Assembly (NCBI GenBank): GCA_045646325.1
Contig: JAZRKM010000046.1
Coordinates: forward strand, 29,405-93,404
DNA from: Akkermansia sp.
GTDB taxonomy: Bacteria > Verrucomicrobiota > Verrucomicrobiia > Verrucomicrobiales > Akkermansiaceae
Direction of reading: 5' to 3'
DNA length: 64,000 nt
Each line of letters opens with the position of its first letter. The stretch's first letter is position 1. The notes below the pieces were generated by a model that was not told where the DNA came from, did not search any database, and saw only the letters and a program-made list of their open reading frames with translations. Positions 1,681 to 42,408 of the stretch are shown piece by piece. The position numbers were made by a program, and so were the translations under genes.

Positions 1681-2520
1681 TCAGCTACGGTGCCGTAACA
1701 AACCATATTTAGGTGATAAAAGCCAGGCCGCCAGGAAGATGCACCCCTGAAGTACAATGATGGTTGCGCCCGGGTGCCAACCCAGCGGGTACGACAGGAA
1801 AAACGCCAGCACGGAACCGCAGCAACCGATGAGCCCGCCGCCCCAGAACATGAGTGAGGCTCGGTCGGTGAGCAGGCGCATGGTGGCTGCCGGAGCTACC
1901 ATCAGCCCGAGGGTCAGGAAGGCCCCCACCGCTTGCAGGGAAGACACCAGCACCAGAATGATAAGCGCGAAGATGCCGTAGCTGAATGCACGGGTGGGTA
2001 TGCCCATGGCCGTTGCCGCGCGTGGGTCAAAAAGGCAGATAAGCAACGGTCGGTAAAGCACTGTAATGGCAAGCACGGCAATGGCACCTGTTCCCCAGGC
2101 TATCCACAGGTCGGTGTTGCTCATGCTCATGATGTTGCCGAAGAGCCAATCGTCCACCTTCTGCTGCAGGCCCAGGCGAATGAGGATGATGTAGCCGAGG
2201 GCGAAGGCCGTGGTGTGCAGGATGGAAAGCGCGGTATCGTGGTCGGCTTTCCCGCTTCGGGCAATGAATAGCGAGCCCAGCCCCACCAGCAGCCCGGCAA
2301 TGACAGCACCGATAAGGATACTCAGCTGCATGAAGCCGAAAAGCAGGATGGCCAGGGCTATACCCGGCAGCAGTGCGCAGGATATCGTGCCAATCTGCAG
2401 CGAGGAGCGCCGAAGCACCACCAGCGCACTCACGAAGCCGTTGGCAAAACCGATGACGGCGCAGGCCCACAGGCTGCGAAGGGCTATCGGTTCAGTGAGA
2501 AATTGCAGAAACTCATTCAT
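1681..2520 (-). CDS. Zn/Mn ABC transporter permease (ZnuB/MntB, ABC-3 family)
   Basis: Highly hydrophobic; WLFGNIMS, FDPRAATAMG (EAA-like) and VVSSLQAVGAFL-type motifs; in operon with ATPase and solute-binding protein. Confidence 0.9.
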   Translation of the reverse strand: MNEFLQFLTEPIALRSLWACAVIGFANGFVSALVVLRRSSLQIGTISCALLPGIALAILLFGFMQLSILIGAVIAGLLVGLGSLFIARSGKADHDTALSILHTTAFALGYIILIRLGLQQKVDDWLFGNIMSMSNTDLWIAWGTGAIAVLAITVLYRPLLICLFDPRAATAMGIPTRAFSYGIFALIILVLVSSLQAVGAFLTLGLMVAPAATMRLLTDRASLMFWGGGLIGCCGSVLAFFLSYPLGWHPGATIIVLQGCIFLAAWLLSPKYGLLRHRS

Positions 2521-3296
2521 GGCGTGACGGTGATGCGGCGTTTGCCGAAGGCGGTGTGCAGGTTTTGCTCATGGAGTACCCCGGCCGTGGGGCCGAACGC
2601 AATGGCGCGGTTGTTGAGCAGCAGGCTGTGGTCGAATATCTGTGCCGCGGTACTCAGGTCGTGGTGAGAGGCGATGATGAGCCGCCCCTCTGCTGCCAGC
2701 GAGCGCAACAGTGCCGCCAGGGACTCCATTCCCGGTACGTCCAAACCGGTGAACGGTTCATCGAGCAGCAGTATGTGCGCCTCTTGTGCGAGTGCTCGTG
2801 CCAGAAAGGCTCGCTGCTGCTGCCCGCCGGAGAGTGCCCCGATTTGGCGGTGCTGCAGTTCTGTCAGCCCGAGGGTATCGAGCGCCTTGTCGACAATTTC
2901 GATATCGTGGCGTCGCAGGCTACGCCAGATGCCGGTGGACGGATAGCGCCCCATCTCCACCAAGTCGCGCACGGTGATGGGAAATCGCCAGTCCACCTCG
3001 GTGCGTTGCGGCATGAAGGCGGTTTCGTGCCGCATGGAGTGCAGGGGAACCCCATTCCAGCTCATGGCGCCGGCAGTGGGTTGCATAAGCCCGGCCAGCA
3101 GGTTGAGCAGGGTGGATTTGCCGGCACCGTTCGGGCCGATGAGGGCCATGGTTTGTCCGCATGAGGCGCTGAAACTGATGTCGCAGAGCACCGCTGTTTT
3201 GCCGTAAGCCGCACAGAGCCCCTCAACCGCGAGCGTATGCCCGCCGCTGTGGTGGTGGCCGCCGCCCCAGCAGATGTGGTCGTGTTCGCTTACCAT
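2517..3296 (-). CDS. Zn/Mn ABC transporter ATP-binding protein with His-rich N-terminus
   Basis: Walker A GPNGAGKST, Q-loop MPQR, signature LSGGQQQR, Walker B LLLDEPFTG. Confidence 0.92.
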   Translation of the reverse strand: MVSEHDHICWGGGHHHSGGHTLAVEGLCAAYGKTAVLCDISFSASCGQTMALIGPNGAGKSTLLNLLAGLMQPTAGAMSWNGVPLHSMRHETAFMPQRTEVDWRFPITVRDLVEMGRYPSTGIWRSLRRHDIEIVDKALDTLGLTELQHRQIGALSGGQQQRAFLARALAQEAHILLLDEPFTGLDVPGMESLAALLRSLAAEGRLIIASHHDLSTAAQIFDHSLLLNNRAIAFGPTAGVLHEQNLHTAFGKRRITVTP

Positions 3297-3712
3297 GTGA
3301 AGTAGAATATATCGTGCACGGTGGAATCTTCAGGCATGGTCCACATGGACTCTGCGCGGTTTTCAAGCCCCTCGGGTTCCAGGTGCAGGGTACAGCCCTT
3401 CATACCGGGCGTGTTGTCGGGCCATTCAATCTCGTACTCGATTTCCGTGCTGTTCTCCATGGGCAGGTTCAGGGAGAAGTGGCAGCTCCCCCTCGGTGCT
3501 GTGAGGTTCAGTACTTCTTTCGCCTCGTGCCACAGGGTGATACGGCGGGGCTCCCCGCTGAAGTACAGGCTTGCGTTAATTGTTCGCAGGCCGGGAGCTG
3601 CTGCCGGGGCTGACTGTGGAGTGGTTGGCGGCGGGGCTGTGAGCCACAGTAGGGGCAGGCCGACGGCAATCACCCCGGCCAGGGTTAAAGCGGCTTTCAG
3701 AACAGGGGTCAT
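3290..3712 (-). CDS. Hypothetical single-TM-anchored protein inside the metal ABC operon
   Basis: MTPVLKAALTLAGVIAVGLPLLWLT hydrophobic anchor. ATG at 3712 overlaps the upstream stop (ATGA) and the 3' end overlaps the ATPase start. The ORF-track start at 4003 lies inside the upstream gene. Confidence 0.7.
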   Translation of the reverse strand: MTPVLKAALTLAGVIAVGLPLLWLTAPPPTTPQSAPAAAPGLRTINASLYFSGEPRRITLWHEAKEVLNLTAPRGSCHFSLNLPMENSTEIEYEIEWPDNTPGMKGCTLHLEPEGLENRAESMWTMPEDSTVHDIFYFTW

Positions 3713-4566
3713 TTGCCCAAGTGCTCGCAGATGGTGTTGAGATTGTGCAAGAATAGCTCTCGGTAGCTCGTGGCGGCCGGGTATATGCCGTCCATCACCA
3801 ATGGGGCAGTGGGTATACCCAGTTGGTCGGCTACTGCCTGCAGGGCACGCGGGGTGCTGTTTATGTCGGTGAAGATGCAGCGGGCGTTCCGGGAGCGCAG
3901 TTCTGCCAGAAGTGCAGCCAATGTGGCGGGGTCGCCCTGGCTCTCTCTGGCTACACCCTGTATCGCGATGGGGGTGAAATGATACGCCTTGCAGAAGTGG
4001 CACATGGCGGCATGACCTGTCACCAGGCAGCGGGCGTTTTGCGGTATGCGGCTGAGTTTCAGTCGGGCCGTGCGGTTGAGCTGCTCCATATCAGCAGCAT
4101 ATCGGGCTTGGCCTTTGGCAAAGAGCTCCGCATGTTCGGGGGCGGCCTGCTGCATGGCTTTCAGGAGCGTGCGGGAGGCTCGCTTCATGTTTTCCGGGGT
4201 GTTCCACCAGTGCGGGTCAGGGTGGTGTGTGCCGGGCACGCGCACATCGGGCACTTCGGCGCCGACTTCAATAATCTGCGTGGTGGCCTTTACACTGTCC
4301 CGCAAATCAGCCAGATAGGGTTCGACCCCCTTTCCGCAGGCCAGCAGCAGGCGGGCATCCGCAGCCGCGGCCAGCTCGCGACCGGTGGGGGTGAAGGCGT
4401 GCAAATCGCCGTTCTCCGGGAACAAATCAACAACCTCAACCTGCTCACCACCCAGTGTACGTGCCATTTCACTCAGCAGCGGGTGCAGGCTGGCTATTTT
4501 CAGCGGAGCTGCATGGGCAACTGACATCCCCAGCATCACCAGCAGCAGGCAGAGCATTTTTTTCAT
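3709..4566 (-). CDS. Zn/Mn ABC solute-binding protein (TroA/ZnuA/MntC family)
   Basis: Signal peptide MKKMLCLLLVMLGMSVAHA; ligand motifs DLHAF, PDPHWW, GHAAM and MDG. Confidence 0.9.
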   Translation of the reverse strand: MKKMLCLLLVMLGMSVAHAAPLKIASLHPLLSEMARTLGGEQVEVVDLFPENGDLHAFTPTGRELAAAADARLLLACGKGVEPYLADLRDSVKATTQIIEVGAEVPDVRVPGTHHPDPHWWNTPENMKRASRTLLKAMQQAAPEHAELFAKGQARYAADMEQLNRTARLKLSRIPQNARCLVTGHAAMCHFCKAYHFTPIAIQGVARESQGDPATLAALLAELRSRNARCIFTDINSTPRALQAVADQLGIPTAPLVMDGIYPAATSYRELFLHNLNTICEHLGK

Positions 4567-4573
4567 GCCCTCT

Positions 4574-4602
4574 ATTATAAAAGCCCCGATTTCCCCTGTC
4601 AA
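4574..4602 (-). promoter_or_regulatory. Consensus sigma70 promoter of the metal ABC operon (leaderless type)
   Basis: TTGACA (4597-4602), 17-nt spacer, TATAAT (4574-4579), then 7 nt to ATG 4566. Confidence 0.85.
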
Positions 4603-6524: not shown

Positions 6525-7355
6525 TTACTGACCAACGGGCTGCATGCCGCTCTCCTGAAGCTGCTGGAGCATCTCAGGGGTGAGCTGGATGGGGTTGCCC
6601 TGGGTGCCGCGACCGGGCTTGATGTCCACGAGCTGGAGCTTGAAGACGAGGGTGGCGTTGTTGCCGATGACACCGGGACCCTGCTCACCATAGGCCAGGT
6701 TGGCGGGGATGGTTACCTCCCACTCAGAACCGATGGGCATGAGCTTGAGGGCCTCGGAGAAGCCGGGAATCACGCCATCAAGGGGCATGTCAACGGGAGT
6801 GGTGCTGGCATCGAATACCGTGCCGTCCACCAGGCGGCCTTCGTAGGTCACGGAGGCAATGGCGGCAGAGCCGTCAGTCTTGGCGTCATATTTACGGCCG
6901 GTACCGGCGGTGAGCACTTTGTACTGCAGACCGCTCTCGGTGGTCACGACGCCCTCCTTCTTGGCGTTTTCTTCCATGTAGGCCTTGCCTTTGGCCAGGT
7001 TGGCAGCAGCGGCCTCGGCAGCGCGCTTCTGCAGGTCAAGCATGAAAGCCTGCATGCATGCGGCGATGTCTTTCTGGCGCATTTCGGGGTCGACCTTGTT
7101 GGCCAGGCCGTCGGCTACACCCTTGAAGAAGACCTCGGCGTCGAAGTCGTCAATACGCAGAGTGTTGGCCTCCATAGCCATCTGGTTGCCGTACTGCTGA
7201 CCCATGAGGTAGGAGAACACTACCTTAATCTCTTCGGGAGAGGGTGTGGCAGCGGGGGCCGGAGCGGGAGCCGGGGCGGGGGCTTCTTGTGCGAATGTAA
7301 GCGGTGCCAGGGCAAGCATGCCCAGGCTCAGTATGGTGCGTGTTGTGTGTTTCAT
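6525..7355 (-). CDS. FKBP-type peptidyl-prolyl cis-trans isomerase (FkpA/Mip-like, exported)
   Basis: Signal peptide, PAPAPA linker, GVVTTESGLQYKVL, YEGRLVDGTVFDAS, VIPGFSEAL, IPANLAYG. Confidence 0.92.
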   Translation of the reverse strand: MKHTTRTILSLGMLALAPLTFAQEAPAPAPAPAPAATPSPEEIKVVFSYLMGQQYGNQMAMEANTLRIDDFDAEVFFKGVADGLANKVDPEMRQKDIAACMQAFMLDLQKRAAEAAAANLAKGKAYMEENAKKEGVVTTESGLQYKVLTAGTGRKYDAKTDGSAAIASVTYEGRLVDGTVFDASTTPVDMPLDGVIPGFSEALKLMPIGSEWEVTIPANLAYGEQGPGVIGNNATLVFKLQLVDIKPGRGTQGNPIQLTPEMLQQLQESGMQPVGQ

Positions 7356-8801: not shown

Positions 8802-11246
8802 ATGTCAGAGCTTGCCCCTGAGATACTGGCCCCCGCGGGGAATTGGGATTGTGTGCGTGCCGCTGTAGCCAACGGCGCGAATGCGGTGTATTTCGGTCTG
8901 GATCGTTTCAACGCCCGTATGCGGGCCGACAATTTCACGCGAGAGGACCTGGCGGCGCTGGTGCCTTTTTTGCACGGGCATGGGGTGAGGGCCTATGTGA
9001 CGATGAATGTGCTCATCTTTACGGATGAGATGGAGGAGGCTCTGGGCTACCTGGATGCCCTCGATGCCGCCGGCGTGGATGGCGTCATTGTGCAGGACCT
9101 CGGGTTAGCCGCTCTGGTGAGTCATTATCGCCGTGAGGGGCGCTGGAAGATTGAGCTGCATATCTCGACACAGATGACGGTGAGCAGCCCCGAGGCCGTG
9201 CAGTGGGTGGATGAGATGTTCGACCCGCAGCAGATTGTGCTCTCGCGCGAGCTCTCGCTCAAAGAGATTGCCGCCTGTGCCAAAGCAACCACCAAACCCA
9301 TTGAGGTGTTCTGCCATGGTGCGCTTTGTGTGGCATACTCAGGGCAGTGCCTCACCAGTGAAAGCCTGGGGCAGCGCAGCGCCAACCGTGGCGAGTGCGC
9401 ACAGGCCTGCCGCATGCCCTACAAGCTCGAAGTCGATGGCCGCCTGCGAGACTTGGGTGAGCGCCGTTATATCTTCTCCCCTCAGGATTTGTGCGCGCTG
9501 GAGCGTGTGCCTGAGCTTCTGGCTGCCGGCGTGCGCAGTTTCAAAATTGAGGGGCGCCTGAAGAGCCCGGAATATGTGGCTGCCACCACGCGGGCCTATC
9601 GCCGCGCACTTGATGCTGCGCTGGCTGAGCGCCCCCTGCCGCAGCAGAAACTCGCCGCTGACCTTTATGCCATGCAAATGGCGTTTTCGCGCGGGTTTTC
9701 CTTCGGCTGGCTGGAGGGTACAGACCACCCGCTGCTCACCCACGGGCGCTTCGGCAAAAAGCGCGGCGCACTGGCCGGGCGAATCATTCGCGTGGGCGAA
9801 GGCTGGGTCGAGCTGGCCGGGGTGCCGGCCATACCCATTGCGCCGGGAGATGGTTTCGTGATAGATGCCGGGCAGGACCGCAATGAAGAACAGGGCGGGC
9901 GTATATGGAAAGTGCAGGGGGCTCGTCTCTTTTTCCATGGCAAGGGCAGTCGAATCGATTGGCGATTCGTGCGCCCCGGGAATTTACTGTGGAAGACAGC
10001 CGACCCGGCGCTGGACAAGTTCCTGCATGCTACCTGGTGCAACTTTGCCCGCCGGGTGGAGGCCCCGGCGCATGCGCTGAATATACGTTTTGTCGGGCGC
10101 ATGGGGGCGGAGTTGACCGCAAGCTGTTGCGGCGTGACGGTGGGGAGCGGGCAACCGCTGGAGCCGGCCGAGAAGCGCCCGCTCACACCTGCCGTGATAG
10201 AGGAGCAGTTCTCCCGCCTGGGGGGTACCGGCTACAGTCTGGGCTCCTGCTCGTATGAGCTTGAGGATGGGCTGATGCTGCCGCTGAGTGTACTCAACCG
10301 CATGCGCCGTGAGCTGGTGGCAAAACTGCCGGACTCAGCCGCCCCCGCAAAGCGTCAGCCGATAGAGTGGCACGGATGGAGTGGTGATTTTGCCCCGCTG
10401 AAAGCTACTGAAAAGTACCGACTGTCTGTACTCTGCCGCGAGCCTGAGCAGGCCGTTGCCGCAGCGGCTGCCGGGGTGAAGCGTGTGTACCTCGATTTCA
10501 CCGACCTGCGTCAACTTGCTCCGGTGGCGCAAAAACTGCGTGCCGAGTACCCCGGTGTAGGCGTTTGGATTGCTACGCTGCGTATCATGAAACCGCGCGA
10601 GGCCGGTTATTTTAAGTTCATACTCGACGCTCAGCCCGATGGGGTGCTGGTGCGAAACCACGGGGCTGCCCGCTTCTTCCGTGAAAAGGGGCTGCCCATG
10701 GTGGCCGATTTCTCGCTCAACGCCGCTAACCCCGAAAGCGTGAAACTGCTGCGCCGCTATGGTATGCGCTCTGTCACCGTTTCGTACGATTTGAACGCCG
10801 ACCAGCTGGCAGACCTGCTGCGCAGTGGCTGCGGGGCGGAACTGGAGCTTACTCTCCATCAGCACATACCCATGTTCCATACTGAGCACTGCGTGTTCTG
10901 TACCTTCCTGTCACAGGGGCATAATTTCATGGACTGCGGCCGACCCTGTGAGCACCACCGCGTGCGGGTCATGGACCGCACCTACGCCATGCATTACCTG
11001 CGCAGCGATGAAGGCTGCCGCAACACGCTCTTCAATGGTCAGGCTCAGTCTGCTGCCCGTTATGTGGCCGGGGCCCGCCGACATGGCCTTACGCGTTTCC
11101 GCCTGGAGTTGCTGGATGAGAGCCCGGAGCAGACGGCCACCCTCATCTCGGCTTATCGCTTGCTCATGCGCGGTAAAATCGAACCGGCCAAGTTGCTGGA
11201 GCAGCTGGACGCCCTCGACCGAATCGGCGTCACGGAAACAAAATGA
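8802..11246 (+). CDS. rlhA: Peptidase U32 family protein, RlhA-like (probable 23S rRNA C2501 hydroxylase)
   Basis: PEILAPAG, AVANGANAVYFG, HISTQ, HGALCVAYSGQC...SANRGECAQACR (Fe-S cysteines), FKIEGRLKSPEYV; long C-terminal second U32-like region. The rlhA assignment is inferred from architecture. Confidence 0.75.
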   Translation: MSELAPEILAPAGNWDCVRAAVANGANAVYFGLDRFNARMRADNFTREDLAALVPFLHGHGVRAYVTMNVLIFTDEMEEALGYLDALDAAGVDGVIVQDLGLAALVSHYRREGRWKIELHISTQMTVSSPEAVQWVDEMFDPQQIVLSRELSLKEIAACAKATTKPIEVFCHGALCVAYSGQCLTSESLGQRSANRGECAQACRMPYKLEVDGRLRDLGERRYIFSPQDLCALERVPELLAAGVRSFKIEGRLKSPEYVAATTRAYRRALDAALAERPLPQQKLAADLYAMQMAFSRGFSFGWLEGTDHPLLTHGRFGKKRGALAGRIIRVGEGWVELAGVPAIPIAPGDGFVIDAGQDRNEEQGGRIWKVQGARLFFHGKGSRIDWRFVRPGNLLWKTADPALDKFLHATWCNFARRVEAPAHALNIRFVGRMGAELTASCCGVTVGSGQPLEPAEKRPLTPAVIEEQFSRLGGTGYSLGSCSYELEDGLMLPLSVLNRMRRELVAKLPDSAAPAKRQPIEWHGWSGDFAPLKATEKYRLSVLCREPEQAVAAAAAGVKRVYLDFTDLRQLAPVAQKLRAEYPGVGVWIATLRIMKPREAGYFKFILDAQPDGVLVRNHGAARFFREKGLPMVADFSLNAANPESVKLLRRYGMRSVTVSYDLNADQLADLLRSGCGAELELTLHQHIPMFHTEHCVFCTFLSQGHNFMDCGRPCEHHRVRVMDRTYAMHYLRSDEGCRNTLFNGQAQSAARYVAGARRHGLTRFRLELLDESPEQTATLISAYRLLMRGKIEPAKLLEQLDALDRIGVTETK

Positions 11247-11258
11247 TACCTTTCACTT

Positions 11259-12548
11259 ATGGAATTACCAATCAATAGTCACCGTCGTGGTTTGTGGGTG
11301 CTGAGCCCGCTGTTCGTCTTCTTCCTGGTCTATGTTGTGGCCTCTGTCATGGTGGGCGATTTTTACAAGATGCCTGTCACCGTGGCCTTCCTTGCGGCCT
11401 CCGCCTGGGCCTTCATCGTCAGTAAACCGCGTGTGCTCAGTCGCCTGATAGACCGTTTCTCATACGGTGCGGCCAACCCGAATATTATGATGATGGTGTG
11501 GATTTTCATCCTCGCCGGAGCTTTTGCCGGATCGGCAAAATATATCGGCTCGGTTGAAGCCACCGTGAACCTGACCCTTTCCATTCTGCCGCCCAATATG
11601 CTGCCGGCCGGCATGTTCCTGGCGGCCTGTCTGATTTCACTCTCCATCGGCACCTCGGTAGGGACGATTGTGGCACTGATGCCCGTTGCCGCTGCGTTGG
11701 CACCTTCTGCCGGACTGCCTACGGCTCTGATGGCCGGTATCGTGGTCGGCGGTGCCTTCTTCGGCGACAACCTTTCGTTTATATCGGATACAACGATTGC
11801 CTCCACCCGCACGCAGGGCTGTCTGATGAAAGATAAGTTCCGCGCCAACTTTTTCATCGTGCTGCCGGCAGCGTTGCTGGTGTTGGCGGTGTATGTGGTG
11901 TTGGGGCTGCAGTACCCGGGTGAAGTTCACGGGGTTCCCTTTTCCTGGGCTCTGGTGGTACCGTACCTGCTGGTACTGGTCATGGCTATTTGCGGGTTGA
12001 ATGTCATGATTGTGCTGCTGTTCGGTCTTTTTGCCACGGGGATAGGGGCTCTGCTGGTACCGCAGCTTTCGCTTATTGACTGGGCAGGTGCTATGGGTAA
12101 GGGGATTACAGGCATGGGTGAACTCATTATCGTGACCCTGCTTGCCGGCGGGTTGCTGGAGCTTATCCGTTACAATGGCGGGTTGAAGTATATCATTACC
12201 CACCTTACCGCAAAAATCACCTCCCGCCGCGGGGCTGAGTTTACCATCGCTCTGCTGGTGACCTTCGCTAACCTCTGCACGGCTAACAATACGGTTGCTA
12301 TTGTGGCTGTGGGTGATATAGCCCGTTGTGTGGCCGAGCGCTTCGGCGTCCCCGCACCTCGTGCAGCCAGTCTGCTTGATACGTTCTCCTGCATTGTGCA
12401 GGGGATGCTGCCCTACGGTGCCCAGTTGCTCATGGGGGCCTCTCTGGCCGGTATCGCCACGCTCGATATCATTCCCTACCTTTTCTATAACTACGTGTTG
12501 GCCCTCGCCTGCGTGATTGTCATCTTCATCAACAGCCGAGGCAAGTAA
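11259..12548 (+). CDS. NhaC-family Na+/H+ antiporter / amino-acid transporter
   Basis: Polytopic membrane protein; GTSVGTI, GGAFFGDNLSFISDTTI, ANNTVAI, ASLLDTFSC, PYGAQLL motifs. Confidence 0.85.
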   Translation: MELPINSHRRGLWVLSPLFVFFLVYVVASVMVGDFYKMPVTVAFLAASAWAFIVSKPRVLSRLIDRFSYGAANPNIMMMVWIFILAGAFAGSAKYIGSVEATVNLTLSILPPNMLPAGMFLAACLISLSIGTSVGTIVALMPVAAALAPSAGLPTALMAGIVVGGAFFGDNLSFISDTTIASTRTQGCLMKDKFRANFFIVLPAALLVLAVYVVLGLQYPGEVHGVPFSWALVVPYLLVLVMAICGLNVMIVLLFGLFATGIGALLVPQLSLIDWAGAMGKGITGMGELIIVTLLAGGLLELIRYNGGLKYIITHLTAKITSRRGAEFTIALLVTFANLCTANNTVAIVAVGDIARCVAERFGVPAPRAASLLDTFSCIVQGMLPYGAQLLMGASLAGIATLDIIPYLFYNYVLALACVIVIFINSRGK

Positions 12549-12584
12549 AAGAAAGAGGTACGAAGTTTTGCTTCGTACCTCTTT
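12549..12584. terminator. Bidirectional intrinsic terminator between NhaC and the His-rich peptide gene
   Basis: AAAGAGGTACGAAG-ttttg-CTTCGTACCTCTTT perfect inverted repeat. Confidence 0.85.
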
Positions 12585-12596
12585 GACTTACCGACT

Positions 12597-12749
12597 TTAG
12601 TGGTGCGGCCCATGGAACCCGTGATGCGGCCCATGGTGCGGCGGTCTGTGATGGAAACTGTGGTGATGGCCGTGGTGATGATGGTGGCAGGCGCTCAGTC
12701 CCAGCAGGCTCAGCGCAGCAACGAGGGCTATGGCTAATTTGTTTTTCAT
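12597..12749 (-). CDS. Small (50 aa) histidine-rich lipoprotein
   Basis: Below the ORF-track cutoff. Manual translation MKNKLAIALVAALSLLGLSA-CHHHHHGHHHSFHHRPPHHGPHHGFHGPHH*. Signal peptide II with lipobox LSA|C, own AT-rich promoter, downstream terminator. Confidence 0.85.
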   Translation of the reverse strand: MKNKLAIALVAALSLLGLSACHHHHHGHHHSFHHRPPHHGPHHGFHGPHH

Positions 12750-12794
12750 CGTGATGTGGTTTGGTTGATGGATTGATAAATAGTTGTTAAGTTT

Positions 12795-12835
12795 GATAAC
12801 GATAATTATTTAACATATAAAACAGAAAACGTCAA
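12795..12835 (-). promoter_or_regulatory. Promoter of the His-rich peptide gene with an overlapping Fur-like box
   Basis: Minus-strand TTGACG (12830-12835), 17 nt, TAAATA (12807-12812). GATAACGATAATTATTTAA (12795-12813) matches the E. coli Fur consensus GATAATGATAATCATTATC at 14/19. Confidence 0.5.
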
Positions 12836-12904
12836 GAAAAAAAGTTAAAAAATGACAACAAAATGTTAACTTTTTGCAAAAAAGGGCGAATTCTATCGTG
12901 ATAC

Positions 12905-12980
12905 AGCGGAGGCTACAGGCCAAACCCTTCAGTCGAAAGCCGAGCGGGGTATTGACCTGTAGCCTCTGCTTGTTAGTTAA
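12905..12980 (+). ncRNA. Candidate small hairpin RNA (unassigned); alternatively a 3' stem of the convergent gene
   Basis: 15-bp stem (12905-12919/12956-12970, one G.U) extended by CAA/TTG and ACCC/GGGT pairs. TATCGT at 12894-12899 lies 5 nt upstream and a U-rich tail follows. Confidence 0.35.
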
Positions 12981-12998
12981 GAAAACGGAGCGAATGCG

Positions 12999-14048
12999 TC
13001 ACTTTTTGGCTTTGAGCGGCACGACGTGGTGCGGGCCGGGCTTGGTGCCTTTGAACTTGGGGTTCATGGAGGCGATGTGATCGTTGGTGATGGTGAAGGT
13101 AAAGGTGCCACCCTCCGCTTTGTCCTGAGCGTCAATGATGTGGTCGAATACGCAGATGGGAGCATTTCCCGGTGTTTCGGGAGCAACGAAGAGGCCGATA
13201 GCCATGGAGGGGCGTTCGAGCCCTTCGCGGTCGGTAATTTTGTAGGTAATGGTATTGACGCCACGCTTGAGGCCGCCGGAAATGACATCTGCTCTGCGCT
13301 CGTCATCGAACTCGTGCATGGAGACATCGTTGATGGTCATTTCAATGTTACGGCCGGGGCAATCAACAAAAACCTTGCCGATAAGTACGGGAGAGCTGCA
13401 CGCGGGCGGCGTGGTGGGGATTCGATCGTAGGGCTGGAACCCATCTTGTTCTTGCAGCAGAGTGAGGTCTTTCTCGCGGAGTCGCTTACGCACATCGGGC
13501 AACTGGGTGAGATTGAACATGCGGGTCTGGTCGAGCTTCCAGCGACCGCCTTCAAAAACGAACTCCAGTACGAAGGCATTTTCGGCCGCTTTGCCGCTGC
13601 CCAACTGCACGTTGCCGATGTAGGTGCTGGCCATGGTATAGCCGTTGCAACCGAGCAGGGAGCCGACGTAGGCGAAGTTTTCGAGTTTGGGGGCCTCTTG
13701 CGTCTGGCGGAAGTAATCGCGCGGGAAGGTGCCACGCTGAGAGACAATCAGGTTGCGTACCTTCATCTGGCGTGAGTTGGATGTCGTGGAGCGCCAAGCC
13801 TGCTCACTACCGCGAATAAGACTGAGCCGCCAGGTATTGTACACCGTTTCAGCCGTGGTGCGCGACTTCTCTTGATCCGGCACAATGAAGCGCTGAGTTG
13901 AGGGGCGGGGCTGATTCTGCTGCTGTGCGGCCTGCTGTCGGGCTGCGCGTCGCTTCAGCTCAGCCTCGATGGCGGCGGGTGTGGCAGCCCCTGCTGCCAT
14001 GCTCAGAAGAGCACTTGCGGCAACGATGGACGAAAAATTTGCTCTCAT
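12999..14048 (-). CDS. Hypothetical exported protein
   Basis: 349-aa ORF with signal peptide and strong codon bias; promoter TTGCCA-17-TAGAGT 10 nt upstream. Confidence 0.8.
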   Translation of the reverse strand: MRANFSSIVAASALLSMAAGAATPAAIEAELKRRAARQQAAQQQNQPRPSTQRFIVPDQEKSRTTAETVYNTWRLSLIRGSEQAWRSTTSNSRQMKVRNLIVSQRGTFPRDYFRQTQEAPKLENFAYVGSLLGCNGYTMASTYIGNVQLGSGKAAENAFVLEFVFEGGRWKLDQTRMFNLTQLPDVRKRLREKDLTLLQEQDGFQPYDRIPTTPPACSSPVLIGKVFVDCPGRNIEMTINDVSMHEFDDERRADVISGGLKRGVNTITYKITDREGLERPSMAIGLFVAPETPGNAPICVFDHIIDAQDKAEGGTFTFTITNDHIASMNPKFKGTKPGPHHVVPLKAKK

Positions 14049-14112
14049 AACGGTCTATACTCTACTACATGCTTGCTTTTTTGGCAAGAAAATAGCATAC
14101 TAGTGCTACGTT

Positions 14113-14991
14113 ATGACGTCATTTTCGGAGCAAACATCAGAACTCGGTGATATCCGGCGAATTCCGGCCGGTACACCGTCTTTTGTGTGGAAACGATTTT
14201 CTGATGGCGTCGAGCTCAAAGTGCATATGTTTGCACCACCGGGGCATGTCGAGACTGCTTTCATGCCGGCGGTGATGTTTTTCCACGGTGGCATGTGGGC
14301 ACTGGAGTTCAGTGAGGAATTTGTGGCTTGGGCCGTGCACCTGTCAACACGCGGTATCGTGTGTTTGCTGCCGGAGTACAGAACCCACGCGAATTACGAT
14401 GTGTCGGCAGAGGATATCATACAGGATGGCCTCGATGCCTGGCGGTGGCTGCACGACAATGCCGGCGGTTTAGGCATTGACCAGTACGCCATCACACTGG
14501 CCGGGACGGATGCCGGTGGGCTGATGGCGCTCAATGCCGCCATGCAGCCTATGTTGCAGACTCGCCGTTGGTGGAAAATCGGCAGCCGCGACGAACTACC
14601 CCTGCAGCCGGCCGCCGTGGCGATATTCCGCGGTCTGGTGGATGTGCATTCTCCCGAAGCACGCCAGCTGAATTGTAAGGCCGAGGTGAGTTCTCCCGAT
14701 CGTTTCAACCCATGCGCACTGTTGCGACGTTATCTGCCGCCGCTTTTCTGTGCTCAGGGTATGGCAGACCCGCTGCAGGACTACGCCATGCGCGAGTGGT
14801 TCTGCGATGAGTGGCGCGCTTTGGGCAATGAGGTGGAGCTGGTGCTCTGCCCGGGGGCCGACCATACTCTTACTCATTTTTCCGTCAATCCCACTGTATT
14901 TGAGCAGGTTCTTCTCGCGTGGGAAAGCTTTATGGCGCGCCAGGGTATCTGGCCACCCGGCGTGGTTGAGGAACACGCACTGATGGTCTGA
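14113..14991 (+). CDS. Alpha/beta hydrolase (HSL-like esterase fold) with an atypical nucleophile elbow
   Basis: FFHGGMW oxyanion motif, GIDQYAITLAGTDAGG elbow, GMADPL acid, GADH histidine. Confidence 0.8.
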   Translation: MTSFSEQTSELGDIRRIPAGTPSFVWKRFSDGVELKVHMFAPPGHVETAFMPAVMFFHGGMWALEFSEEFVAWAVHLSTRGIVCLLPEYRTHANYDVSAEDIIQDGLDAWRWLHDNAGGLGIDQYAITLAGTDAGGLMALNAAMQPMLQTRRWWKIGSRDELPLQPAAVAIFRGLVDVHSPEARQLNCKAEVSSPDRFNPCALLRRYLPPLFCAQGMADPLQDYAMREWFCDEWRALGNEVELVLCPGADHTLTHFSVNPTVFEQVLLAWESFMARQGIWPPGVVEEHALMV

Positions 14992-42209: not shown

Positions 42210-42408
42210 CACTATTACTTTTACGCTTTTGTACACCGTATTTCAAGCTAAAACTTTCCCGAGAGCTGACTTTTTCATCGTTACTCGGGGTGATTTCTGC
42301 GGCTTAGCGCCTTCTTTGATAAATTTGGGTAAATTTGTGTAGCTTGTTGCTTGACACGGCGTGTGCAAGTGGTAGAATGCAGAGAGTACCCGCAATTTTT
42401 TATCAGAT

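Follow-up and report, generated by a model that had tools for sequence, protein, structure and literature searches.

An open reading frame (ORF) of 50 codons, initiated by ATG, lies at 12597..12749 (-) of a 64,000-nucleotide stretch of Akkermansia sp. DNA (the window, meaning the whole stretch that was analysed; coordinates given without a locus name refer to it), and its translation, MKNKLAIALVAALSLLGLSACHHHHHGHHHSFHHRPPHHGPHHGFHGPHH, is that of a very small, histidine-rich predicted lipoprotein. The product begins with a signal peptide that occupies codons 1-20 (MKNKLAIALVAALSLLGLSA, 12690..12749 (-)) and that includes the L-S-A of the lipobox as assigned with the PROSITE PS51257 rule. This is followed by the codon for Cys21 (12687..12689 (-)), which is the predicted lipidation site, residue 1 of the mature peptide, and an invariant position in the alignment of orthologues, and then by a 29-residue tail (HHHHHGHHHSFHHRPPHHGPHHGFHGPHH, codons 22-50, 12597..12686 (-) including the stop codon) in which 17 residues, a share of about 60%, are His. 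This layout agrees in every respect with an earlier reading that was made from the sequence alone (the sequence-only reading), which had described the same 50-residue translation with a lipobox, a Cys at position 21, and 17 His in a 29-residue tail. The highest His density elsewhere in the window, read in six frames, was 8 per 29 residues, and block-shuffled windows (n = 20) gave maxima of 6-8 His per 29 residues. The density observed, 17 His per 29 residues, lies far outside what chance would give.

Lipoproteins were recognized by a positively charged n-region, an uncharged h-region, a lipobox of the form [LVI][ASTVI][GAS]-C, and a Cys at residue 15-35. The N-terminus of the small ORF product has K2 and K4, the uncharged hydrophobic segment AIALVAALSLLG, and L-S-A-C with the Cys at 21, and it fits the PS51257 rule. 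The strict PS51257 pattern was found in 18 of 20 family members, and the remaining two have N or T in the lipobox. Searches of Pfam, NCBIfam, and PDB sequences with the small ORF gave no significant match, and the weak matches in NCBIfam were limited to lipoprotein signal regions, for example those of LptM and OsmB. In terms of annotation, the description of the gene as unannotated holds for the window allele, whose exact protein is absent from the public gene-call collection, but not for the whole family, as a few orthologues are on deposit as 'hypothetical protein'. The annotation of gut-bacterial genomes systematically overlooks proteins of fewer than 60 residues, and the window allele is a case that is under clear selection yet uncalled. 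With the comparative data described below, we consider it very likely that this is a real lipoprotein gene.

Orthologues and purifying selection

The 349-aa protein encoded upstream of the small gene was used as the query against bacterial assemblies, at one genome per species, and 44 loci were recovered. Nearly all of them are labelled Akkermansia or Akkermansiaceae, and most are metagenome-assembled genomes (MAGs) that derive from gut samples of ruminants, horses, rabbits, and other sources. The highest identity in this neighbour-protein search, 97%, was to a locus in a sheep-caecum MAG, and the locus is present in DNA runs of gut and bovine-gut metagenomes. Of the 44 Akkermansia species loci, 16 have a small ORF on the same strand as the 349-aa neighbour and immediately downstream of it, and the frame-conserved homologues on which the sequence-only reading had staked its proposal are therefore present. 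The small ORF is present in approximately those species in which the neighbour protein shares 74% identity or more with that of the window.

The 16 copies share one build, which consists of M(N/K)K at the start, a hydrophobic core, L/F-(S/N)-(A/S/G/T)-C, and a tail rich in His, Gly, Pro, Tyr, and Arg. The orthologues are 52 to 77 residues long in total, with mature tails of 29 to 57 residues over the family, and 13-18 His are kept in 15 of the 16 despite this variation in tail length. The tails cannot be aligned position by position over the whole set, while the reading frame is intact in every copy; in an alignment of 17 orthologues, the Cys is the sole invariant column besides the initiator Met. 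The pooled composition of the tails is 40% His, 17% Gly, 10% Pro, 8% Tyr, and 7% Arg, with Asp and Glu together at 0.4%, and the tail of the window peptide has a single Arg. Each tail has 0-1 Met (none in the window peptide), the His-rich members have nearly no Cys, and GHHPH-, HGPHH-, and GHGYHGG-like repeats occur in the family.

The proportions of synonymous (pS) and nonsynonymous (pN) differences were determined for close pairs of equal length. Over the whole ORF, pS and pN were 0.47 and 0.021 for L010/L012, 0.57 and 0.028 for L010/L014, and 0.28 and 0.028 for L008/L041, with ranges of 0.21-0.57 for pS and 0.02-0.03 for pN in close species and a pN/pS of 0.03-0.10, tail included. The His tail alone gave a pS of 0.29-0.68 against a pN of 0.02-0.03 (pN/pS 0.03-0.08) in close pairs, and CAC/CAT flips were seen at 2-4 of the 13-14 conserved His columns. 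The ORF is also intact in four independent metagenomes of the window's species cluster, where it differs by in-frame insertions of 9 nt and by three point changes, worked out by hand as F32S, H29Y, and G27S. The low pN/pS, the invariant Cys, and the retention of the frame through insertions and deletions argue that the small ORF is a real protein-coding gene under strong purifying selection, and the conserved signal peptide, together with a promoter and a terminator of its own, likewise bears out the earlier claim of a genuine small gene. Selection appears to hold the number of His over long distances and the exact sequence within sub-clades. A His number that is held while the positions are free fits a multivalent, low-specificity chelating or charge function.

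Two close relatives without the gene, L006 and L042, have broken synteny with dnaK in its place. The small gene was not found at the corresponding position in the more distant Akkermansia lineages searched, the A. glycaniphila locus included, and there was no A. muciniphila protein among the matches of the protein searches. An exhaustive phmmer search of 1.84 billion cluster representatives gave one further relative, P0002 (49 aa); the only other match, the 878-aa repeat protein P0001, is no relative. P0007 came from a profile search of 5.8 billion proteins, together with deposited 'hypothetical proteins' that match L010 and L018 and resemble L016.

P0002, P0007, and L067 lie in a second genomic context, with a divergent uvrA on one side and a convergent rsmB on the other. 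The copies with the same gene architecture in this context are on metagenome contigs L045-L047, L067, and L130 (G+C content 51-57%), at 3206..3355 in L045, about 2169..2342 (-) in L067, and 1264..1449 in L130, and they have their own TTTACA-17-TAATTT promoter, Shine-Dalgarno sequence, and terminator. Because the gene is found in two contexts with its own signals in each, it is a self-contained module at two or more chromosomal sites.

Promoter, operator-like element, and terminator

The sequence-only reading had given the gene its own promoter and terminator, and both were found. The -35 hexamer, TTGACG (12830..12835 (-)), is present as TTGAC[GT] in register in 15 orthologous loci, and a 17-nt spacer separates it from an extended -10 element, TGtTAAATA (12807..12815 (-)), in which the TG and the TAAAyA show the strongest conservation within the promoter over the 15 sites (1.2-1.4 bits). 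The generic promoter scan requires a T at position 6 of the -10 hexamer and thus left this promoter unflagged. The other promoters of the window are likewise sigma-70-like, with TTGACA-17-TATAAT/TAGAAT (znuA, moxR). The predicted 5' leader of about 50 nt (12750..12800 (-)), as counted from an inferred transcription start, is A/C-rich and has no Shine-Dalgarno sequence, which is normal for this genome since a Shine-Dalgarno-like motif precedes only 3 of 25 window genes. An intrinsic terminator hairpin with a 14-bp stem, a 5-nt loop, and a T-rich tail (12552..12584 (-)) follows 13 nt after the stop codon and separates the small gene from the convergent nhaC-like gene (11259..12548 (+)), closing both. 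GC-rich hairpins and T-runs are found after most of the orthologous ORFs too.

When the upstream regions were aligned on the -35 hexamer, the conserved sequence read TTGAC(G/T), 17 nt, TG-n-TAAA(T/C)A, and then (A/T)TTATCAGTT, so that the conservation reaches beyond the needs of a promoter. The operator-like element of the window (12794..12817 (-)) has a near-palindromic core, TGTTAAATAATTATCG at 12815..12800, that overlaps the -10. The clade consensus of this dyad is TGwTAAAy.AwTTATCA(GTT), 16 bases from the TG of the extended -10, and in L013 the palindrome, TGATAAATATTTATCA, is perfect over all 16 bp. Dyad scores at this register averaged 5.25/8, compared to 2.03 +/- 1.29 elsewhere in the same AT-rich regions, and half of the promoters score at least 6/8, a value that 1.1% of background positions reach. 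A position weight matrix (PWM) made from the dyad sites gave 33 bits at the gene's own promoter, while the next unrelated match in the window, at 14.6 bits, lies inside a coding start. The natural reading of a dyad over the -10 is that the gene would be controlled by a dimeric repressor.

The L016 orthologue (7131..7307 (+); also P0004) has lost its His-richness, with 5 His, 3 Cys, and 6 Tyr. It is the sole orthologue without a His-rich tail, and its promoter is without the dyad, so that tail and operator appear to have changed together in this single case. Upstream of the -35, at 12836..12880 (-), T-tracts and GTTAAC/GTTGTC/TTTAAC motifs are spaced every 11 nt or so and are conserved in WIN, L001, L002, L004, L005, and L007; they could be an UP-element, curved DNA, or the site of a second regulator. 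The within-species polymorphism in the four metagenomes clusters at 12655, 12665, and 12671, in the His tail, and at 12794..12817, in the -10 and operator region, and one metagenome variant removes the TG of the extended -10. A weak PWM match at 42407 precedes a MoxR/BatA operon.

Proposed function and alternatives

The model that we prefer, and to which we give about an even chance, is that the product is a conditionally expressed, membrane-tethered metal-capture peptide. Export by the Sec pathway and processing by Lgt and LspA would yield a 30-residue lipopeptide that is held in an envelope membrane by its acylated Cys, either on the periplasmic face or at the cell surface. Its tail is predicted to be disordered and would present about 16 imidazoles and no acidic residues, and it may act as a multivalent chelator of the borderline divalent ions Zn2+, Ni2+, Cu2+, and Co2+ that maintains a local pool at the membrane. 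An imidazole-rich tail that is free of carboxylates and has 0-1 thioethers suits these ions and not Cu+ or Ag+. The low Met content, and the near absence of Cys in the His-rich members, point to imidazole rather than to thiolate or thioether chemistry. The dyad would be bound by a dimeric repressor, most economically a metal-responsive one and possibly a member of the Fur family, and the peptide would be made under metal scarcity, capturing or concentrating metal for uptake systems as has been proposed for Hrl of Mycoplasma. The conditional part of this model is preferred because of the putative repressor site over the promoter and the apparent silence of the gene in metatranscriptomes. Judged from the composition of the tail, metal binding is the probable function, while induction by scarcity in the service of uptake is a more tentative proposal.

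The closest precedent appears to be this Hrl (MG_149 of M. genitalium, MPN162 of M. pneumoniae), by likeness and without detected homology. In this His-rich lipoprotein system, a Fur-family regulator represses the gene by way of a dyad adjacent to the -10 (PMC6968530); hrl is derepressed by chelators, repressed by Zn, and linked to the accumulation of Ni (PMC6968530; PMC8566771), and the protein has been proposed to be metallophore-like or a substrate-binding helper for the uptake of metal, namely Ni and possibly Zn (PMC6968530; PMC8566771). Both systems have a lipobox anchor, a His-rich product, a stand-alone gene, and a sigma-70 promoter with a dyad at the -10. However, the Akkermansia dyad is unlike the Fur box of hrl, gcTTATTTtgAA-N3-TTcaAAATAAgc; the peptide itself is far smaller than Hrl, with a bare tail of 29-57 residues in a diderm envelope; and the regulation of hrl by Fur was shown experimentally whereas that of the Akkermansia gene is inferred. 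No Mollicutes protein was found by phmmer among the 1.84 billion representatives or by the profile search of the 5.8 billion proteins, both of which were database searches rather than pairwise comparisons with MG_149 and are made less sensitive by low-complexity filters; apart from one alphaproteobacterial protein and one repeat protein, all matches were small lipoproteins of the Akkermansia type. The sequence-only reading had put the peptide forward as an undescribed component. The concept has a precedent in Fur-regulated Hrl, a candidate metal-acquisition protein (PMC6968530), and the claim is right only in part. A literature search found no His-rich lipoprotein for Akkermansia and the phrase 'histidine-rich lipoprotein' only in Mycoplasma work.

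Several observations weigh against the preferred model. No metal gene adjoins the small gene in any genomic context examined, and the PWM found the dyad nowhere else in the 64 kb, the upstream region of znuA included. The copy in L009 (6650..6811 (+)), which begins 29 nt after the gene of the 349-aa neighbour, has no private promoter and is probably co-transcribed with that neighbour. The orthologous promoters match the E. coli Fur 19-mer at only 10-12 of 19 positions, which is chance level, and a crude regular-expression scan of the window ORFs found no Fur-family signature. Finally, four gut metatranscriptomes (X29-X32) cover the nhaC-like and 349-aa neighbours and nothing in 12521..12871. 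These are contig-level data of low depth, in which contigs cannot prove absence, and the missing coverage is weak evidence that is also expected of a repressed gene; it is consistent with a gene that is switched off in the gut under ordinary conditions and speaks against strong expression at all times. Runs X25-X28, with long contigs of flat depth, were uninformative.

In terms of the repressor, the half-site TGATAA(A/T) of the dyad resembles a Fur half-site, and the window site matches the E. coli Fur 19-mer at 14 of 19 positions, the best match in the 64 kb (P ~0.007 for the base composition). This match is restricted to the window allele, and the identification of the element as a Fur box was set aside because of the chance-level scores of the orthologues; a Fur-family box is a lead and not a finding. 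A literature search gave no Fur, Zur, or other operator for this phylum, and the paper on iron in A. muciniphila gives no operator sequence. The candidate operator would offer an entry point to a regulon of this phylum.

The sequence-only reading had also suggested that the peptide might feed a Zn/Mn-type ATP-binding cassette (ABC) system encoded 8 kb away. The system is real and consists of genes for a ZnuA-like protein, an ABC ATPase, and an ABC-3 permease at 1681..4602 (-). The nearest PDB structures to the ZnuA-family binding protein (3709..4569 (-)) are of the AztC/ZnuA type, and at its third ligand position, by which Zn-type and Mn-type sites are told apart, there is the His of the Zn type (GHAAM); the protein is without the His-rich loop that is common in ZnuA proteins. 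Because this loop is lacking, a poly-His element that helps the binding protein in trans is conceivable by analogy. The proposed feeding of the system was not borne out by the genomic data, however, as about 8 unrelated genes separate the small gene from the operon, the znuA promoter (TTGACA-17-TATAAT) is without the dyad, and there is no transporter on the 4.8-7.6 kb contigs that bear the gene in the uvrA/rsmB context. Co-regulation of the small gene with this operon was likewise rejected, since the element is absent at the znuA promoter and there is no second PWM site in the window.

A bolder version of the preferred model is that these proteins are lineage-restricted 'mini-metallophore lipopeptides', the smallest known dedicated envelope metal components, which would serve as a membrane-tethered antenna that concentrates Zn or Ni and passes it to importers without a His-rich loop, such as the one with the AztC/ZnuA-like binding protein of the window. 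Each would consist of a lipidated Cys and some 30-57 disordered residues with about 16 His, and its expression would depend on the release of the dyad by a metal-sensing repressor. A diderm gut commensal would then have arrived by convergence at the same solution as Mycoplasma with Hrl. We regard this whole picture as possible but doubtful. If metal binding is true, a lipid anchor and a bare poly-His tail would suffice for a regulated metal-handling component of the envelope, and it would be a lineage-specific tool of herbivore-gut Akkermansia in the competition for Zn or Ni. The family is small, and the use of a synthetic peptide makes tests cheap.

It is unlikely, in our view, that the same peptide is instead a buffer against metal excess, induced at high metal through an ArsR/SmtB- or CsoR-like repressor that metal would release and soaking up surplus Zn, Cu, or Ni in the envelope, as proposed for SilE/PcoE or SmbP. 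In its favour, SilE is described as an intrinsically disordered 'molecular sponge' of the periplasm (PMC5008109). The position of the operator, over the -10, is compatible with either regulatory direction, the likeness to the Fur consensus is not conserved, and no uptake system is linked to the gene. However, there are no efflux or resistance genes nearby in any context, the His/Met motifs of the SilE/PcoE type are absent, with 0-1 Met per tail, and about 16 low-affinity sites per 30-residue peptide represent a small capacity unless the peptide is very abundant. ArsR/SmtB operators are of the TGAACA type and CsoR operators are GC-rich, and the AT-rich TGATAA-type half-sites are nearer to Fur-type boxes than to either of these.

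A role that is not primarily in metal binding is also improbable, with the peptide as a pH-switchable cationic tether that becomes charged below about pH 6 and binds sulfated or sialylated mucin glycans, lipopolysaccharide, or DNA, or modulates the outer membrane, in the manner of the His-rich region of vertebrate histidine-rich glycoprotein (HRG) or of the histatins. Akkermansia species are mucin specialists, but the gene was not found at this position in the distant lineages searched, the A. glycaniphila locus included, and the protein searches gave no A. muciniphila match, which argues against a core role in mucin colonization. The composition would suit a tether, with Arg and Tyr in the tail, only 0.4% Asp and Glu, and GHHPH-, HGPHH-, and GHGYHGG-like repeats, and the GHHPH repeats of HRG bind heparan sulfate in a pH- and Zn-dependent manner; on the other hand, the genomic context has no pointer to glycan use, and tight operator control would be unusual for a structural adhesin.

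The capture of haem or other porphyrins, in which haem iron would be ligated by the tail, as it is by Plasmodium HRP2 or by HRG, for haem acquisition under iron-responsive control, is very unlikely. There is no haem transporter or TonB-dependent receptor nearby, known bacterial haemophores are folded proteins, and the 14/19 Fur-like match of the window promoter, which would favour an iron response, is not conserved in the orthologues, even though the His-rich repeats of HRP2 and HRG bind many haems. Least probable is a non-functional ORF that arose by chance on a CAY-rich repeat, as an antisense artefact, or as a His-codon leader peptide, a reading to which the short length, the low complexity, the absence of the allele from gene-call databases, the lack of RNA coverage, and the open antisense frame would lend themselves but which is essentially excluded by the selection data (pN/pS of 0.03-0.10, an invariant Cys, a conserved signal peptide, and a frame kept through insertions and deletions) and by the gene layout, with no downstream gene to attenuate, no Rfam match, and an antisense ORF that is a by-product of the CAY codons.

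An RNA element or riboswitch was rejected because there is no Rfam match in 11000..14500 at E <= 1. A his-operon leader or attenuator was rejected because a terminator and the convergent nhaC-like gene follow the ORF, no Rfam leader was matched, and the product has a 20-residue signal peptide. The antisense ORF (12600..12737 (+)) was rejected because CAY codons read as RTG on the other strand, and it is the sense frame that is marked by the conserved signal peptide and Cys.

Comparison with known metal-binding proteins, and the genomic neighbourhood

We place the small predicted lipoprotein with the His-rich envelope lipoproteins and metal-binding peptides, of which the Akkermansia peptide would be a minimal form. 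Hpn and Hpn-2 of Helicobacter pylori are similar in being very small, roughly half His, and without a stable fold, and Hpn binds several Ni or Zn ions per chain. In contrast to the Akkermansia peptide with its conserved signal for signal peptidase II, Hpn is cytoplasmic, has no signal peptide or lipobox, and contains Cys pairs and acidic residues; no Hpn was matched in any protein search with the small lipoprotein. SmbP of Nitrosomonas europaea is exported and binds several metal ions in the periplasm. SilE and PcoE are largely disordered and bind several metal ions in the periplasm (PMC5008109). These multi-metal binders are soluble exports of the signal peptidase I type with about 90-120 residues. 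In addition, SilE and PcoE use His and Met motifs for Ag(I)/Cu(I), belong to resistance operons, and are under two-component control, whereas the Akkermansia peptide is predicted to be lipid-anchored, is nearly free of Met, and is genomically solitary; HxxM/MxxH motifs and a sil/pco operon setting are absent for the window peptide.

A further analogy is with the His-rich loop of ZnuA-type binding proteins and with the periplasmic zinc chaperones ZinT and AztD, which are flexible poly-His segments or small partners for the capture of Zn close to an ABC importer. However, both chaperones are folded, and the small gene has no genomic, regulatory, or co-occurrence link to the ABC operon, so that the comparison is one of analogy only. 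The pneumococcal histidine triad (Pht) proteins are large surface proteins with HxxHxH triads (Pfam Strep_his_triad), in contrast to the small ORF with its 29-residue mature tail and no Pfam match.

The genes around the small ORF include those for a peptidase U32, the NhaC-like antiporter, the 349-aa hypothetical protein, an esterase, L,D-transpeptidases, QueC, and CysRS, and are housekeeping or uncharacterised. The 349-aa protein (12999..14048 (-)) is secreted, has no Pfam domain, and has 268 relatives, in Akkermansia-type sequences only. Its AlphaFold model (mean predicted local distance difference test score, pLDDT, 86) shows an NTF2-like domain and a beta-sandwich, and the best PDB match (E 7e-3) was uninformative. 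As an Akkermansia-only hypothetical protein without an informative structural match, it was rejected as a hint to function. Between the znuA-like and ABC ATPase genes, an ORF of about 140 aa at 3297..3716 (-) (MTPVLKAALTLAGVIAVG...) has an N-terminal membrane helix and no Pfam match, and it may be an accessory of the metal ABC operon.

A metagenome scan with the family alignment gave 207 pattern matches, which were discarded as none was confirmed by tblastn. A DNA pattern scan for LSACHHHHH gave 78 loci, mostly chance CAY runs, and the only genuine ones were L067, which is of the same family, and L072/L120. L120 (778..921 (+)), L072, and P0006 (L048 8001..8195) are unrelated proteobacterial small lipoproteins of 45-64 aa in which the mature protein would start with CHHHHH or CHHWH. 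Examples are one with ...LSACHHHHHRHGVPPGHDPHGPGNSENAPGHNKR that adjoins asmA and an alphaproteobacterial one that is rich in His, Arg, and Asp. Like the Akkermansia gene, these are not beside metal genes. The arrangement of a predicted lipidated Cys followed by a run of His recurs sporadically outside Akkermansia.

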